A stretch of DNA of 64,000 nucleotides from an uncultured Bacteroidales bacterium (GCA_964649975.1 CAZYSM010000009.1:478-64477); one strand, 5' to 3'. Positions 15,793 to 18,937 are shown, counted from the first letter of the stretch. Made by a program: numbers and translations. The notes: generated by a model not told the origin, from the sequence alone.

Positions 15793-16214
15793 TGTTTATG
15801 GACCTGGTTGTTTCAGAGGGGTATTATGATATTTTTTATTCGCAGCAGAAGAAAATTATGCTTATCCGCTGGAAAGTCAAAGTGCTTGATCTTTCGCTTA
15901 TTGAATATAAAGAAATAATGTTTAGGGCCTACGAGTATCTAACAATATTGGATACGGATTACTTGATCCAGGACGGGTCGGATGCTGTTTTTCCGGCTAC
16001 GCTTGAAGCAAATGACTGGATTGTGAAAAATATTTCGCCACGTTTTGCTCAGGTAGGATTGAAAAAGATAGCTTACATAATACCACGGGATGATCGCACC
16101 CTTGAAGGACTGGAAAAAATGGTTGATAAAAGTTTAAGTGTTTTTCCGCAGGTTGAACGAAGACTTTTCCCGGATATAGATAAGGCTATGGCATGGATAA
16201 AAGGTAATATTTAG
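15792..16214 (+). CDS. STAS/SEC14 (SpoIIAA-like) small protein
   Basis: W...ISPRFAQVGLKKIAYIIP and C-terminal F.DIDKAMAWI, typical of Bacteroidota SpoIIAA-like proteins. Confidence 0.7.
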   Translation: MFMDLVVSEGYYDIFYSQQKKIMLIRWKVKVLDLSLIEYKEIMFRAYEYLTILDTDYLIQDGSDAVFPATLEANDWIVKNISPRFAQVGLKKIAYIIPRDDRTLEGLEKMVDKSLSVFPQVERRLFPDIDKAMAWIKGNI

Positions 16215-16322
16215 ATATTGCTTGCTTTTAGTGATGTTTGAAAGATAGGAAAAATGCATAGTTAGGATGTAATAGAAAAATGAAGTAATTTGTAAATGCT
16301 CTCTGATATTATAACTATCCAC

Positions 16323-16353
16323 TTGACAAAAAGTAATAAATTTCATATCTTAG
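16323..16353 (+). promoter_or_regulatory. Promoter of putative sRNA 1
   Basis: TTGACA, 17 nt, TATCTT; also reads as TTG...TATCTTAG, a near match to Bacteroidota TAnnTTTG. The boxes are conserved in copy B while the spacer diverges. Confidence 0.75.
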
Positions 16354-16357
16354 CCTT

Positions 16358-16472
16358 GCGTCGTTAAATAGCCGGTCCGGGAGTGACGCCCCGGACCGCC
16401 CACTGGTTCCGGTGGTAATAATGGAACGTGACGGGGCGCTGTAATAGATTTATCTTAGCGCCCCGTTTTTTT
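16358..16472 (+). ncRNA. Putative structured small RNA 1 (~115 nt), unknown family
   Basis: Promoter upstream; GGTCCGGG/CCCGGACC stem whose loop AGTGACGC is complementary to the 5' GCGTCGTT; second hairpin; ACGGGGCGCT/AGCGCCCCGT terminator plus T7; no ORF. Confidence 0.65.
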
Positions 16473-16827
16473 ATTAGTTTTTTGTGGAATATTCTGTTTA
16501 TTAGATGGTTGTAGTTGTTGAGAGATAAAAATGAGTCTTAGTATCAGCAAAAGGGCGAGATATTTTGGCGTGGCATTACATAGTCCAAATATTGCAGGAT
16601 ATTAAGAGTGGGAGAGTAAAGGTTAGTTATTAATTTCATTAATTTAGGGGAAGTAAAATTTTGAAAATCAATAAAATATCCTAATAACGAGATTAAAATA
16701 AGTCAATTAAACTTTAAAAAGTTAAAACTTTAATAATCAGTGTATTGTGTAAATCAAATTCTTTTATTTCTGACTTTTTTGTCATCCCCATCATGATTTT
16801 TTAGATAGCCTCTTGTTTTTGCATTAC

Positions 16828-16858
16828 TTGACAAAAATAGATGGATTTCGTATATTAG
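16828..16858 (+). promoter_or_regulatory. Promoter of putative sRNA 2
   Basis: TTGACA, 17 nt, TATATT(AG). Confidence 0.75.
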
Positions 16859-16862
16859 TCTT

Positions 16863-16979
16863 GCGTCGTAAAACAGTGGTCCGGGAGTGACGCCCTGGAC
16901 CCCTCCGGGCGTAGGTCCCGGCTTTTTATTTAAACGGGGAACTCACCAAGACATGATTTCGGTGAGCGCCCCGTTTTTT
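16863..16979 (+). ncRNA. Putative structured small RNA 2 (~117 nt), paralog of sRNA 1
   Basis: 5' GCGTCGT; GGTCCGGG-AGTGACGC-CCTGGACC stem-loop (G-U keeps pairing); CCGGG/CCCGG hairpin; AAACGGGG..CTCACC/GGTGAG..CCCCGTTT terminator plus T-run. Confidence 0.65.
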
Positions 16980-17132
16980 ATTAGTTTTTTGTGGAATATT
17001 CTGTTTATTAGATGGTTGTAGTTGTTGAGAGATAAAAATGAGTCTTAGTATCAGCAAAAAGCAGGTATATATTTGGCGTGACATTACATTGGTCAATATT
17101 GCAGGATATAAGAGAGTAGAGGGGAGCAAGGT

Positions 17133-17354
17133 TTAATAGTCAAGTATTTTTCCTAAAATAATAAGAAAAATTATGCTAGCTGGGAGACTAATCAAAAAAA
17201 TATTGTCAGTAATTAAAGATATTAAATAAGGAATTAAAAATAATGAAATTGTTAAAGCTAATGCTTCAAAAGTTTTTTCTGTTAAATATTTAAAGTATTT
17301 ATCTAATAACCAGAAGATAATAATAATCCATCCTATAATAACTAAAGTTGTCAT
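17133..17354 (-). CDS. Small hydrophobic membrane protein (73 aa, ~3 TM)
   Basis: ATG-started ORF with three hydrophobic stretches; size and layout match its neighbours. Confidence 0.7.
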   Translation of the reverse strand: MTTLVIIGWIIIIFWLLDKYFKYLTEKTFEALALTISLFLIPYLISLITDNIFLISLPASIIFLIILGKILDY

Positions 17355-17369
17355 ATATGCAAGATTTGT

Positions 17370-17597
17370 TTATAATTCATTAATTAAACTGTAAATAGCT
17401 AAAAAGCCTGTATAAATGAGATATTCTATAAAGACTATTTCAAAGATGTTTTTGCCTATGAAGGGAACAGGCATCATAATTAAAATTAGTACATATAGAA
17501 AACCATCAGTTTTGATATCTTCCCAATAACGTATGGTCAATGCCACAGGAAGTGAGATTAGGAGTATAAAAAATATTATGATAAAAAATATTTCCAT
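17370..17597 (-). CDS. Small hydrophobic membrane protein (75 aa, ~3 TM), paralog of 18311-18529
   Basis: Shares W[ED][DK]IK...LY...P...N[IL][FY]E...AI with the 72-aa ORF. Confidence 0.75.
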   Translation of the reverse strand: MEIFFIIIFFILLISLPVALTIRYWEDIKTDGFLYVLILIMMPVPFIGKNIFEIVFIEYLIYTGFLAIYSLINEL

Positions 17598-17717
17598 CCC
17601 AGTTCAGTGATTTTATCTTATTTCCGAAAAAAATTAAAAAAATAAGAATAAATGTCAAATTGCGAATTATGTAATTCTTTCGGAAGTGCTGAACTTGACA
17701 TTAATAGATTATAACTT

Positions 17718-17788
17718 GTGTACATCGGCAGAGGGGATGTACACTCCTCTCTGACAGGCGGATGCCTATACGGCGTCCGCATTTTTTT
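17718..17788 (+). ncRNA. Putative structured small RNA 3 (~70 nt; pseudoknot-capable plus terminator)
   Basis: GTGTACATC/GATGTACAC stem with loop CAGAGGG complementary to downstream CTCTCTG; GCGGATGCC/GGCGTCCGC plus T7 terminator; TTGACA at 17695 but with non-canonical -10 spacing. Confidence 0.5.
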
Positions 17789-17806
17789 ATAATTGTTAGA
17801 TTATCA

Positions 17807-18147
17807 TTATAGATATAAAAACAGAAATTCTGCGCTAATCTTGTCCTTTAGTCCGTAAATCCTGTGTTTTAGATTGTTTATATCAAAATAGTATTGACTG
17901 TAAATGATAATTATTTCCGCACGTTTGTTCTCTATAATCTTTCTTATAAAACCATTATTTTGGGCGTGCTTAATAATTTGATTTCAGCAGTTTTTCCGTT
18001 AATTAGTGCATCTATATTTATTTGCTCTGCAAATATTTCATCATGATTATGCTGCTTCAGTGTCTCAGCAGTAGCTACTTCAGACCAACCTGTGTTAGGG
18101 TCAAAATTGTGCTTTTTATGTATAACTGTATAAGTTCCTTTTCCCAG
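17807..18147 (-). pseudogene. Frameshifted remnant of a PD-(D/E)XK-fold, CdiA-C/MuF-toxin-like nuclease domain
   Basis: Frame 1 (18147-17944) reads ...HKKHNFDPNTGWSEVATAETL...IDALINGKTAEIKLLS; it continues in another frame as NNGFIRKIIENKRAEIIIIYSQ...EFLFLYL* (stop 17807); no ATG start. Confidence 0.55.
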
Positions 18148-18310
18148 TTAAAACTATAAATAAAGGTGTTGGTTTAACTTTTATCCTGGTGAGCTTGTCC
18201 TTTATATTTGTTTTGTTGTTAAAAGACAAGAATAGTTTTTGTAGTAATGAAGTATTTTTTATTTTCTCTCATATAAGTGTTGCAAGGATATAAAGGAGCG
18301 TGAGAGTAAG

Positions 18311-18529
18311 TCAATCAAATAGGGCAATAGCACATAGAATTATATAATCAATAAGAAATATTACGTAAGCAAGTTCGTACAGATTGAATATTATAGGAAT
18401 TATAATTGATAATGGCATAATAATATAAAGTTTCGCCTGTTTTATTTTATCCCAGGCATGAATAATTGGAGCTATTAATAGCCCTAATACGAGAGTAAAT
18501 AAATAGAAAAAGGCAATAAATTCAAGCAT
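18311..18529 (-). CDS. Small hydrophobic membrane protein (72 aa, ~3 TM), paralog of 17370-17597
   Basis: ATG-started ORF, three hydrophobic segments, visible similarity to the 75-aa ORF. Confidence 0.75.
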   Translation of the reverse strand: MLEFIAFFYLFTLVLGLLIAPIIHAWDKIKQAKLYIIMPLSIIIPIIFNLYELAYVIFLIDYIILCAIALFD

Positions 18530-18687
18530 AATGCAGAAAGTTTTGTTTATCCTTCGTATATAAATTTATCTGTTTTGTTGTTAAAACACAATAGTAAAAT
18601 TATGGTCTGGTATGATTAAAGAAAGGAATAAGATTTGTTTGTAAATACCTGAATATCAAGATAATGTAGGGGTGGTTTGTTGTTAAT

Positions 18688-18718
18688 AAAAAACTGGGAC
18701 AGCTTGCTGCCCCAGTTT
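18688..18718 (-). terminator. Terminator of the tRNA-Ser/tRNA-Pro transcript
   Basis: AAACTGGG.CAGC/GCTG.CCCAGTTT stem with an A-run on + (U-tract on -). Confidence 0.7.
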
Positions 18719-18721
18719 AGT

Positions 18722-18799
18722 TGGTCGGGGTGCCGAGATTCGAACTCGGGACCTCCTGCTCCCAAAGCAGGCGCGCTAACCGGACTGCGCTACACCCCG
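18722..18799 (-). tRNA. tRNA-Pro(TGG)
   Basis: CGGGGTGTAGCGCAG..., anticodon arm CCTGC-TTTGGGA-GCAGG, GTTCGAATC T-loop, encoded CCA. Confidence 0.97.
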
Positions 18800-18850
18800 T
18801 AGAAAGCACTGGCAAAGATAGTGCTTTTTTGTAAAAAACAAAAAAATCTG

Positions 18851-18937
18851 CGGAGAGGGAGGGATTCGAACCCCCGGTGGGCTTCCGCCCACAGCGGTTT
18901 TCAAGACCGCCGCCTTCGTCCACTCGGCCACCTCTCC
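18851..18937 (-). tRNA. tRNA-Ser(TGA)
   Basis: GGAGAGG acceptor stem, GCGGT-CTTGAAA-ACCGC anticodon arm, long variable arm, GGTTCGAATCC. Confidence 0.96.

Follow-up and report, generated by a model that had tools for sequence, protein, structure and literature searches.

What are three short GC-rich units, each preceded by a promoter-like region and closed by a terminator hairpin, doing in an AT-rich islet beside a tRNA-Pro gene of an uncultured Bacteroidales bacterium, and what kind of genes do they face? The islet occupies ~2.4 kb of a 64,000-nt stretch of this genome (GCA_964649975.1 CAZYSM010000009.1:478-64477; the whole stretch is hereafter the window), and the initial annotation had seen in it an array of pseudoknot-capable RNAs, candidate antitoxins or immunity RNAs, each facing a toxin-like or small membrane gene. 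The best overall explanation, to which we give about an even chance, is a decayed piece of phage with a relic of a MuF-CdiA_C toxin gene and convergent small RNAs that would act as cis-antisense RNAs. The main value of the locus is that it points to an antisense RNA unit, conserved but so far uncurated, at the 3' ends of MuF-CdiA_C genes in Bacteroidota phages. The window itself holds a phage relic with a toxin-domain pseudogene.

The third unit (unit 3) and the gene that it faces lie as follows:

17693 to 17720, plus strand: unit 3 promoter-like region, ACTTGACA and then TAACTTGTG
17722 to 17788, plus strand: unit 3 RNA candidate, with a hairpin at 17729-17753 (CAGAGGGGA / TCCTCTCTG) and a terminator at 17758-17780 followed by T7
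17766 to 18233, minus strand: relic of a MuF C-terminal region, truncated at its 5' end, with eight in-frame stops and at least three frame changes in a frame-wise reading, and with a CdiA_C-type D...ExK toxin domain

No Pfam family was recognised in the minus-strand pieces of 17782-18233. Among 1.84 billion protein representatives, the 67-aa middle piece matched a 416-aa protein, P0003, to which it is 79% identical. P0003 has Phage_Mu_F (PF04233) at residues 108-179 (E 3.4e-15), an SPP1 gp7 domain and minor-head PHROG matches over residues 8-271, and its tblastn matches are minor head proteins of Bacteroidota phages. All frame pieces of the window align to its C-terminal extension (residues ~255-409); neither the window nor the rest of the genome has the N-terminal MuF part, and nothing outside residues ~255-409 finds a match there. 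Six related proteins align over the extension and share an invariant E, G and E in [IV]-x-x-x-E ... D/E-x4-G-x3-E-x-K. Three of these six match Pfam CdiA_C (PF18451; best E 2.5e-11), as does L095, a further MuF protein (E 1.1e-13); P0003 itself falls short of the cut-off (E 0.037). Among feature neighbours in the Atlas, 26/30 are CdiA_C clusters, and a profile search of the PDB gave a weak match to 4g6v_A (E 1.8). The AlphaFold model of P0003 has a predicted local distance difference test score (pLDDT) of 41.5, too low for a structure search, and only its order of secondary-structure elements fits a PD-(D/E)xK core. The middle toxin piece had no match in any of 201 genomes of the order, and a profile of the C-terminal domain had a match in one of 401 genomes of the phylum. 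These alignments show the window nuclease to be, at the level of sequence, a broken C-terminal fragment of a phage MuF (minor head) gene of the polymorphic-toxin type; with its MuF domain missing and its C-terminal toxin domain present, it is a relic and not a member gene of the MuF family. The frameshifted D...ExK nuclease of the initial annotation was therefore right in kind and indeed frameshifted, but is a fragment of a much larger phage gene.

Unit 3 converges on the very end of this gene. P0003 has the C-terminus ...LTIIKIKNADAV, ending in IKNADAV, and KNADAV* is the minus-strand reading of 17766-17786, which comprises the loop and the 3' arm of the unit 3 terminator and part of its T-run. 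The stop codon of the intact toxin gene falls in the terminator loop and, with KNADAV* encoded within it, the terminator is therefore conserved in the relative. The extended -7 box consensus of Bacteroidota is TANNTTTGY (PMC12632263). To this the unit 3 box TAACTTGTG, which equals TAACTTTGT less one T, has two mismatches, and it was missed by a scan for sigma-70-type promoters; the loss of one T would fit decay. A paralogue of unit 3 (G000:C15:1489-1568) has a perfect TACTTTTGT box, with one double and two single compensatory changes in its terminator stem.

The same arrangement recurs at related genes. MuF loci were taken from viral contigs and species genomes, and a second scan was run with the C-terminal domain alone; twelve loci bear the domain (L091, L092, L109, L110, L111, L121 and L128-L133), some of them close kin, and represent about eight lineages. 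An antisense TANNTTTGY lies within 130-140 nt downstream of the toxin gene end in 12/12 of these MuF-CdiA_C loci, compared to 18/203 other open reading frames (ORFs) of the same loci and 233/2395 ORFs of the window's genome, a base rate of about 9%. A -33 TTG stands ~14-23 nt upstream of the box (by eye, six loci). A GC-rich hairpin comes after the box. Beyond it, the L109 group, L121, L128 and L129 have a T-run at the stop codon, L130-L133 have another hairpin that lies at the stop or covers it, and L091 and L092 have only a weak U-rich stretch. The layout that we used to define the class is an antisense -7 box, a hairpin with a purine-rich 5' arm and a T-run at the stop codon of the toxin gene or over it, and unit 3, with its antisense TAACTTGTG box, CAGAGGGGA/TCCTCTCTG hairpin and terminator over KNADAV*, has this layout. 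The toxin link proposed in the initial annotation is right for one unit, unit 3.

In the RNA predicted for L109, L111, L110 and L121, a 9-bp stem is followed by GUA and a small inner hairpin with GAAA, AUAA or GCAA as its cap; next come a bulged A and the 3' arm. In an alignment of six sequences, 98.1% of the cells of the 9-bp outer stem are paired and 4/9 pairs are changed on both sides; the covariation score is reached by 0/500 shuffles, and a partner slid by 1-3 columns pairs in 48-67%. G-U or U-G pairs fill 15 of the 54 cells, that is, A-C mismatches on the sense strand of the toxin gene, and because these pairs form on the antisense strand only, the conserved structure belongs to the antisense transcript. 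Rfam, run on nine MuF loci, gave one tRNA and no family for the conserved RNA, and the covariance model R3 recovered L128 (E 0.0028). When viral contigs were scanned with an RNA-side pattern, six of the 15 matches were true units of hairpin and T-run; four converge on toxin-domain genes, one on a 175-aa ORF and one on nothing recognisable. The same 34-nt hairpin is present in L111, L136, L143, L145 and L146. In 6/13 loci (12 with downstream sequence), what follows the RNA unit is a conserved 172-203 aa gene, structural as read by position and similarity, and no small ORF intervenes. The relatives show the conserved linkage to MuF-CdiA_C genes and the covariation; such units are spread over diverse phages of Bacteroidota, have no Rfam family and covary in a strand-specific manner.

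Some loci show further features. In L128 / L141 (IMGVR_UViG_3300045988_163616; L128:1925-1967) the toxin frame is stopless and reads through the RNA element to the locus end, possibly through a fusion, a poly-A frameshift or a sequencing error. The RNA of L143 (IMGVR_UViG_3300031993_003018; 1201-1234) faces the 175-aa ORF, which has an HxK...D-like motif, in place of a MuF gene; the ORF is possibly a phospholipase D (PLD)-type nuclease, and the RNA may partner with other nuclease genes too. An extra small ORF lies between the RNA unit and the next conserved gene at L110:3022-3402 (126 aa, with a hydrophobic N-terminus) and at L129:2030-2254 (74 aa). Both are candidate protein immunity or moron genes, to be compared with the islet's small ORFs P_b and P_a described below.

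Is the islet itself foreign? Its limits and neighbours are:

16220 to 18700, no strand: AT-rich inserted islet, ~2.4 kb, 31% GC (genome, 39.7%)
18691 to 18799, minus strand: tRNA-Pro (TGG) at 18722-18799 with its own terminator at 18691-18718
18850 to 18937, minus strand: tRNA-Ser

On one side the islet is limited by the stop of a 140-aa gene (16214), and on the other by the tRNA-Pro terminator. In two genomes of the same genus (G003 and G004) the HIT gene and the 140-aa gene are followed, after ~180 nt, by tRNA-Pro, and in a third (G001) ~350 nt separate the 140-aa gene from tRNA-Pro; none of the three has the islet. The islet is shown to be an insertion, because it is missing from 3/3 same-genus genomes that carry the locus on one contig; G002 and G005, whose flanks are on separate contigs, stand outside this count. 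The initial annotation had described an islet that adjoins a tRNA and starts at the tRNA-Pro terminator, lacks an att (attachment site) duplication and is perhaps a relic, and all of this is borne out: no tRNA-derived att repeat was found at the islet's far end, the islet keeps neither integrase nor att repeat, and the toxin gene is truncated and interrupted by stops. Among sequencing runs, this DNA was found in six DNA runs from three studies and in no RNA run, and fragments of the islet are also present in assembled contigs from other samples (four sequencing runs compared). Against 50,697 phage records, blastn gave no match to the islet, and Pfam gave nothing above chance for 33 further islet open frames (stop to stop, at least 30 aa).

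How could such a unit work? A temperate phage remnant of Bacteroidota type, now decayed, would have lodged beside tRNA-Pro and kept a MuF toxin fragment, moron-like membrane genes with their own promoters and short non-coding units on the opposite strand. Unit 3 would be a small convergent RNA gene, with its terminator over the last seven codons of the toxin gene. An RNA of this class might act in cis, antisense to the transcript of the toxin gene, damping leaky toxin expression in the lysogen and blocking antisense read-in; with the toxin gene dead in the window, unit 3 would be a leftover. We infer the transcription, the antisense mechanism and any antidote effect alike, and by analogy a type I- or OOP-like antisense role of unit 3 is plausible.

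Several observations weigh against this account. The -7 box of unit 3 is imperfect, its spacing to the TTG is short (14 nt), and unit 3 and the toxin ORF overlap by only ~23 nt. R3 scores unit 3 at 3.2 bits (E 6.4 in 2.5 kb), its best match in the islet being the unit 1 terminator (9 bits, E 0.24), and over the whole genome neither R3 nor an nhmmer profile of the 5' part of the conserved RNA gave a match. The unit 3 hairpin, CAGAGGGGA-TGTACAC-TCCTCTCTG, looks like the L109-type 5' arm together with the beginning of its loop (GCGGGGAG-TGTACC) and also like the L129 stem CAGGGGG/CCTCCTG, both resemblances without statistical support; unit 3 would thus be a member of the class by layout only, with no detectable homology in sequence or structure. 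Within the class, the six sequences that show the covariation include relatives of one another and are also those from which the structure was taken; R3 misses L121, L091 and L092, whose elements differ, and to speak of one family is therefore partly a judgement on layout. The box also follows 10/37 MuF rows without the domain by our own hidden Markov model (7 groups), one of them L095, which is CdiA_C by Pfam, and the units of several domain-less MuF rows look like plain bidirectional terminators. The paralogue of unit 3 sits behind an amylase-like gene (by eye) and beside a CRISPR array, with no toxin next to it, and therefore the double hairpin could be a portable terminator. Finally, units 1 and 2 have one homologue only, promoterless and in another context, and no support from covariation.

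The surroundings of the paralogue (L004; G000:C15:1-3055) contain, on the minus strand at 1572-1300 and 1300-1, three consecutive hairpin-terminator units running from the amylase-like gene to the CRISPR array. The first is the paralogue itself, and the first and third begin with TTTGTAGTGGG. The array has 17 repeats of ~36-37 nt (GTTTCAATCC...GGAAAG).

What do the three units of the islet have in common? The initial annotation had noted three GC-rich islands in AT-rich DNA, each with an upstream box and a hairpin followed by T6-7 and each facing minus-strand coding or decayed coding sequence, and this description proved accurate. The islands at 16358-16472, 16863-16979 and 17718-17788 have 56%, 56% and 54% GC, compared to 26-29% in their flanks; each has ACTTGACA upstream (at 16321, 16826 and 17693), a sequence with 51 copies on both strands of the 2.8-Mb genome, and each ends in a plus-strand hairpin with its T-run. 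All three face minus-strand ORFs or ORF relics and converge on their 3' ends. Their fold z-scores relative to shuffles are -3.8, -3.7 and -4.5 for units 1, 2 and 3. Among the 388 terminator-like hairpins of a strict genome-wide scan, 66 lack an upstream ORF on their own strand, and most of these are tRNA or bidirectional terminators; because such orphans are only 66 of 388, several orphan plus-strand terminators inside 2.4 kb are unusual for this genome. Sigma-70-type promoter matches are not enriched in the islet (13 observed, 13.3 expected).

Two of the searches that the initial annotation had proposed for the RNAs were carried out. Rfam 15 assigned no family to any of the three, giving tRNAs only in the window at the gathering threshold and nothing real in 16200-18720 even with the cut-off relaxed to E 10. 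Of two covariance models, R1 was built on the unit 3 type and R2 on the 5' domain that units 1 and 2 share; run over 151 genomes each, they found the known copies and otherwise only generic terminators. BLAST on 101 relatives limited the homologues to one copy in G002 for units 1 and 2 and the C15 paralogue for unit 3, and pattern scans for the RNAs of the units gave 0 and 10 chance matches in viral contigs and 0 and 7 in metagenome contigs. None of 16 CRISPR spacers of contig C15 matches the islet. The idea that the units are CRISPR-repeat mimics was rejected, there being no convincing likeness to the C15 repeat by eye (no alignment was made).

Units 1 and 2 and the duplication that carries them are arranged as follows:

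16321 to 16354, plus strand: unit 1 promoter-like region, with ACTTGACA, whose TTG is at 16323-16325, and TATCTTAGC after a spacer of 20 nt
16357 to 16472, plus strand: unit 1 RNA candidate, with a 5' hairpin at 16374-16397, a variable middle and a terminator hairpin at 16432-16465 followed by T7
16457 to 16552 (partner 16965-17059), no strand: near-identical segment of the duplication, from the terminator 3' arm through ~85 nt downstream
16556 to 16825, minus strand: possible decayed twin of the ORF at 17133-17354, in the unit 1 half of the duplication, with no open frame and no Pfam match
16826 to 16859, plus strand: unit 2 promoter-like region, ACTTGACA ... TATATTAGT
16862 to 16979, plus strand: unit 2 RNA candidate, with the 5' domain as in unit 1 and a second hairpin at 16935-16973 followed by T6

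The two are copies of a 505-nt tandem duplication, 80% identical overall, and are not independent: the earlier count of three units is correct, but they represent two RNA types. In the sigma-70-type scan the promoter of unit 1 has 10/12 matches and that of unit 2 has 11/12, and the unit 1 -7 element TATCTTAGC has one mismatch to TANNTTTGY. The promoter region is conserved between the copies, as is the 5' hairpin (GGTCCGGG-AGTGACGC-CCYGGACC), in which the motif CGGGAGTGACGCCC is invariant in 3/3 copies (units 1 and 2 and G002) and its pairing partners vary. The middle of the RNA has been replaced, and unit 2 has an internal terminator-like hairpin at 16905-16921 with CTTTTTATTT. Sharp identity breakpoints fall inside the two terminators, and from the terminator 3' arm onward ~96 nt are identical apart from one T; farther downstream the copies differ by indels. 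The duplicated downstream segment is conserved at the nucleotide level, because these indels shift any reading frame, and for the same reason we rejected a riboswitch or leader of a small plus-strand ORF at 17038-17136. The segment at 16556-16825 aligns poorly with the ORF at 17133-17354, of which it may plausibly be a decayed copy.

The single further homologue of units 1 and 2, in the same-genus genome G002, has no promoter box, sits upstream of a gene judged relA/spoT-like by eye and stops at a terminator equivalent to the internal hairpin of unit 2. The proposal that units 1 and 2 are orphan immunity RNAs finds no support in this context. They may be a second small RNA, restricted to the genus and converging on a membrane-gene operon, for which we would guess at a similar convergent antisense or terminator role. 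Copies of a ~35-nt repeat (GCGGGGTTATATATGGGTCGTGYCGCTGGCACT), absent from the window's genome, flank the G002 homologue (L006, G002:C120, minus strand, ~300-250 and 150-100), and at the end of this contig there is a further TTGACA...TATATTTG promoter-like unit with a GC-rich RNA start. Within the islet, an 18-nt inverted match (89%) between 16996-17013 / 16489-16506 and 17301-17318 joins the conserved 3' untranslated region (UTR)-like segment to the 5' coding part of P_a and would fold the minus-strand mRNA back 5' to 3'; with ten such pairs across the AT-rich islet, it may be due to chance.

Could the units form pseudoknots, as the interleaved order S1a-S2a-S1b-S2b ascribed to all three would suggest? 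The complementarity between loop and leader exceeds chance in unit 3 only, where it extends over 9 nt (P=0.0002 compared with shuffled leaders). The pseudoknot claim is weak for the other two units, which have 5 Watson-Crick pairs each (P=0.10 for unit 1 and P=0.06 for unit 2), and the homologues do not keep the complementarity, with 4 pairs both in the G002 copy (P=0.11) and in the paralogue of unit 3 (P=0.28). The linker between S1b and S2b is 0 nt in every unit examined, and in the classical geometry of an H-type pseudoknot such a linker prevents both stems from forming fully. Moreover, S1a of unit 3 overlaps the likely -7 box and start site. We take the interleaved segments to be, at best, alternative pairings.

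The remaining minus-strand genes of the islet are small hydrophobic ORFs:

17133 to 17354, minus strand: P_a, 73 aa, hydrophobic, faced by unit 2; its only database relative, P0012, is 99% identical
17370 to 17597, minus strand: P_b, 75 aa, hydrophobic; its relative P0001 is 87% identical, of the same size and without indels
18311 to 18529, minus strand: P_c, 72 aa, hydrophobic, a weak paralogue of P_b (E 2e-4)

The initial annotation had counted two small ORFs with three transmembrane segments; small hydrophobic ORFs are present, but they are three in number, and their segments, about three hydrophobic stretches each, were counted by eye only. No family matched any of the three, and an Atlas search with P_b was empty. 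P_b has its own promoter-like TTGACA...TAATTTTT upstream on the minus strand; it starts 168 nt (17598-17765) past the stop of the relic on the same strand and is a small downstream ORF in the sense used for MuF genes (<150 aa). Unit 2 ends 153 nt from the stop of P_a, and neither unit 1 nor unit 2 overlaps an ORF. The duplexes that the RNAs could form with the 5' regions of these small ORFs are at background level (0.72-1.0 of the background is at least as good). All three ORFs are orphans. The longest recorded contig is 107,921 nt for each of P0003, P0001 and P0012, and because it is the same they are probably on one contig, from a relative with the same neighbourhood and an intact toxin gene.

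How does the locus compare with systems already described? The polymorphic MuF toxins of temperate phages have C-terminal domains that include cd13442, the tRNA-cleaving nuclease (tRNase) domain of CdiA-2 1026b (PMC5576092, Jamet et al. 2017); the word 'Bacteroidetes' does not occur in the main text of that paper. Like the toxins described there, P0003 joins an N-terminal MuF/SPP1-gp7 region to a C-terminal nuclease common to contact-dependent inhibition (CDI) toxins, a small ORF (P_b) lies downstream and the relatives are in phage contigs; unlike them, the window has a broken C-terminal fragment without the MuF domain, and many related loci have an antisense RNA unit, and no small ORF, in the position in which that paper would expect an immunity gene. 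As weapons carried by phages, MuF toxins form a large class that has been little tested, and self-protection of the lysogen has been inferred only from small downstream ORFs. An antisense RNA unit with its fixed place at the 3' end of one type of MuF toxin gene would add a new layer to the control of polymorphic toxins. Orphan modules of toxin C-terminus and immunity gene in CDI and Rhs loci were reportedly described by Poole et al. in 2011. Like these, the islet retains a 5'-truncated C-terminal toxin fragment with the sequence that follows it, but the fragment is frameshifted, its setting is a phage relic with no full-length cdiA or rhs gene ahead of it, and no protein immunity was identified here.

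Among antisense RNAs, the OOP RNA of phage lambda is ~77 nt long, has its own promoter and terminator, lies antisense over the 3' end of a phage gene and lowers its mRNA. Unit 3 would likewise be a short antisense RNA with its own promoter and terminator that converges on the 3' end of a phage protein gene; the targets differ, being a regulator for OOP and a toxin here, the two RNAs are unrelated in sequence, and a like mechanism is proposed by analogy. The type I systems txpA/RatA and bsrG/SR4 of Bacillus prophages overlap at their 3' ends, and a short convergent RNA with its own promoter and terminator over a toxin 3' end in prophage DNA is also the arrangement of yonT/SR6 (PMC5848175). Unlike the small membrane peptides of the Bacillus systems, the toxin here is a 416-aa virion nuclease protein; the ORF overlap is only ~23 nt, and, according to PMC12390103, the host phylum is one without a described type I-like system. 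Type III toxin-antitoxin systems (ToxIN, CptIN and TenpIN) pair a structured RNA with a nuclease toxin, the RNA being encoded upstream on the same strand as co-transcribed tandem repeats, with a terminator between them and the toxin gene. A structured RNA and a nuclease toxin are also the partners proposed here, but the RNA is convergent on the opposite strand, without a repeat array, and the support for a pseudoknot is weak. TRF (minimum score 30) found only two AT-rich micro-repeats, both outside the units, and none of ToxN/AbiQ, CptN or TenpN is present, the faced gene being MuF and CdiA_C-like with no other Pfam match in any islet frame. The type III-like reading of the initial annotation fails on these grounds: there are no tandem repeats, the RNA is neither upstream nor co-transcribed, and the toxin family is not a type III one.

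We weighed the preferred account, in which the RNAs are cis-antisense elements of a decayed phage, against explanations that make them antidotes. One would pair MuF-CdiA_C toxins with a covarying antisense hairpin RNA as antidote in the immunity slot, in place of a protein immunity or in addition to one, and would make the islet an orphan antidote array that outlived the toxin gene, as the initial annotation had proposed, with the RNA acting as a type I-like antisense or, within the same reading, as a substrate-mimic decoy of the tRNase domain; we consider this reading quite unlikely. If true, it would be the first type I-like antisense antitoxin of the phylum and the first for a polymorphic toxin. 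Very unlikely, in our estimate, is an RNA in the immunity slot that neutralises the nuclease protein itself, as a type III-like binder or a tRNase decoy, with unit 3 and perhaps units 1 and 2 as orphan immunity RNAs, which is the idea of the initial annotation. The 6/13 loci in which no small ORF separates the toxin gene from the conserved gene that comes next, a hairpin more conserved than the toxin protein, the tRNase type of the domain and the retention of unit 3 beside a dead toxin gene, as immunity logic expects, speak for such an RNA; yet the titles and abstracts returned by a literature search name no polymorphic toxin with RNA immunity, the RNA is convergent, not co-transcribed, and without tandem repeats, unit 3 is not homologous to the conserved hairpin, the small ORFs downstream of the relic could be protein immunity, and a cell that makes MuF, a virion protein produced late, may do without immunity. 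That the small membrane ORFs are type I toxins, with the units as antisense antitoxins over the 3' UTR of their mRNAs as in txpA/RatA and yonT/SR6, would accord with the convergent layout, the prophage-relic setting, the tandem duplication that carried RNA and ORF together and the unit 2 hairpin, which could also terminate a minus-strand transcript. We give it little credence: the ORFs have 72-75 aa and about three hydrophobic stretches by eye, as against single-helix peptides of less than ~60 aa, no RNA overlaps any membrane ORF (unit 2 stays 153 nt short of the P_a stop), complementarity to the 5' regions is at background level (0.72-1.0), the ORFs have no relatives beyond near-identical ones, and, according to PMC12390103 (2025), type I systems have so far been recorded only in Proteobacteria, Firmicutes and Tenericutes.

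Other explanations leave the adjoining genes out of account. The units may be trans-acting small RNAs of the phage, non-coding morons that act on host or phage mRNAs elsewhere, their adjacency to toxin and membrane genes being incidental. Each has its own promoter-like box and terminator, CGGGAGTGACGCCC is invariant in 3/3 copies when its pairing partners change, like a seed or a protein-binding motif, the paralogue and the homologue are in unrelated contexts, and no complementarity to neighbouring 5' regions was seen; no targets were identified, however, and across phages layouts of the unit 3 type lie beside MuF toxin genes far more often than the base rate would give. We hold this explanation to be rather unlikely. 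It is hardly probable that the units have no function as RNA and are terminators or insulators at module boundaries of a mosaic phage, or recombination joints, with promoter likeness partly due to chance. Sigma-70-type matches that are not enriched (13 compared with 13.3 expected), the imperfect promoter of unit 3, the sharp breakpoints inside the unit 1 and 2 terminators, which resemble recombination joints, and the many MuF-downstream units made of an A-tract, a hairpin and a T-tract, like bidirectional terminators, would all fit such punctuation. Against it, TANNTTTGY is present in 12/12 loci at a fixed place and strand, the G-U pairs make the conserved stem strand-specific, and plus-strand terminators without a plus-strand gene need a plus-strand transcript to stop.

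Two further observations concern the joints of the islet. A repeat of 21-30 nt (TGTTTTGTTGTTAAAA...) occurs at 18205-18234, 18567-18596 and 18673-18693, that is, at the 5' edge of the MuF relic, upstream of P_c (where the 30-mer 18567-18596 recurs as 18205-18234) and just past the tRNA-Pro terminator. This repeat could serve as a promoter or a 5' UTR module, or mark the joint where the toxin gene was truncated. The identities of the relative's proteins are also mosaic, at 99% for P0012 and P_a, 87% for P0001 and P_b and 79% for P0003 and the MuF C-terminus, which suggests recombination between modules across 17133-18233.

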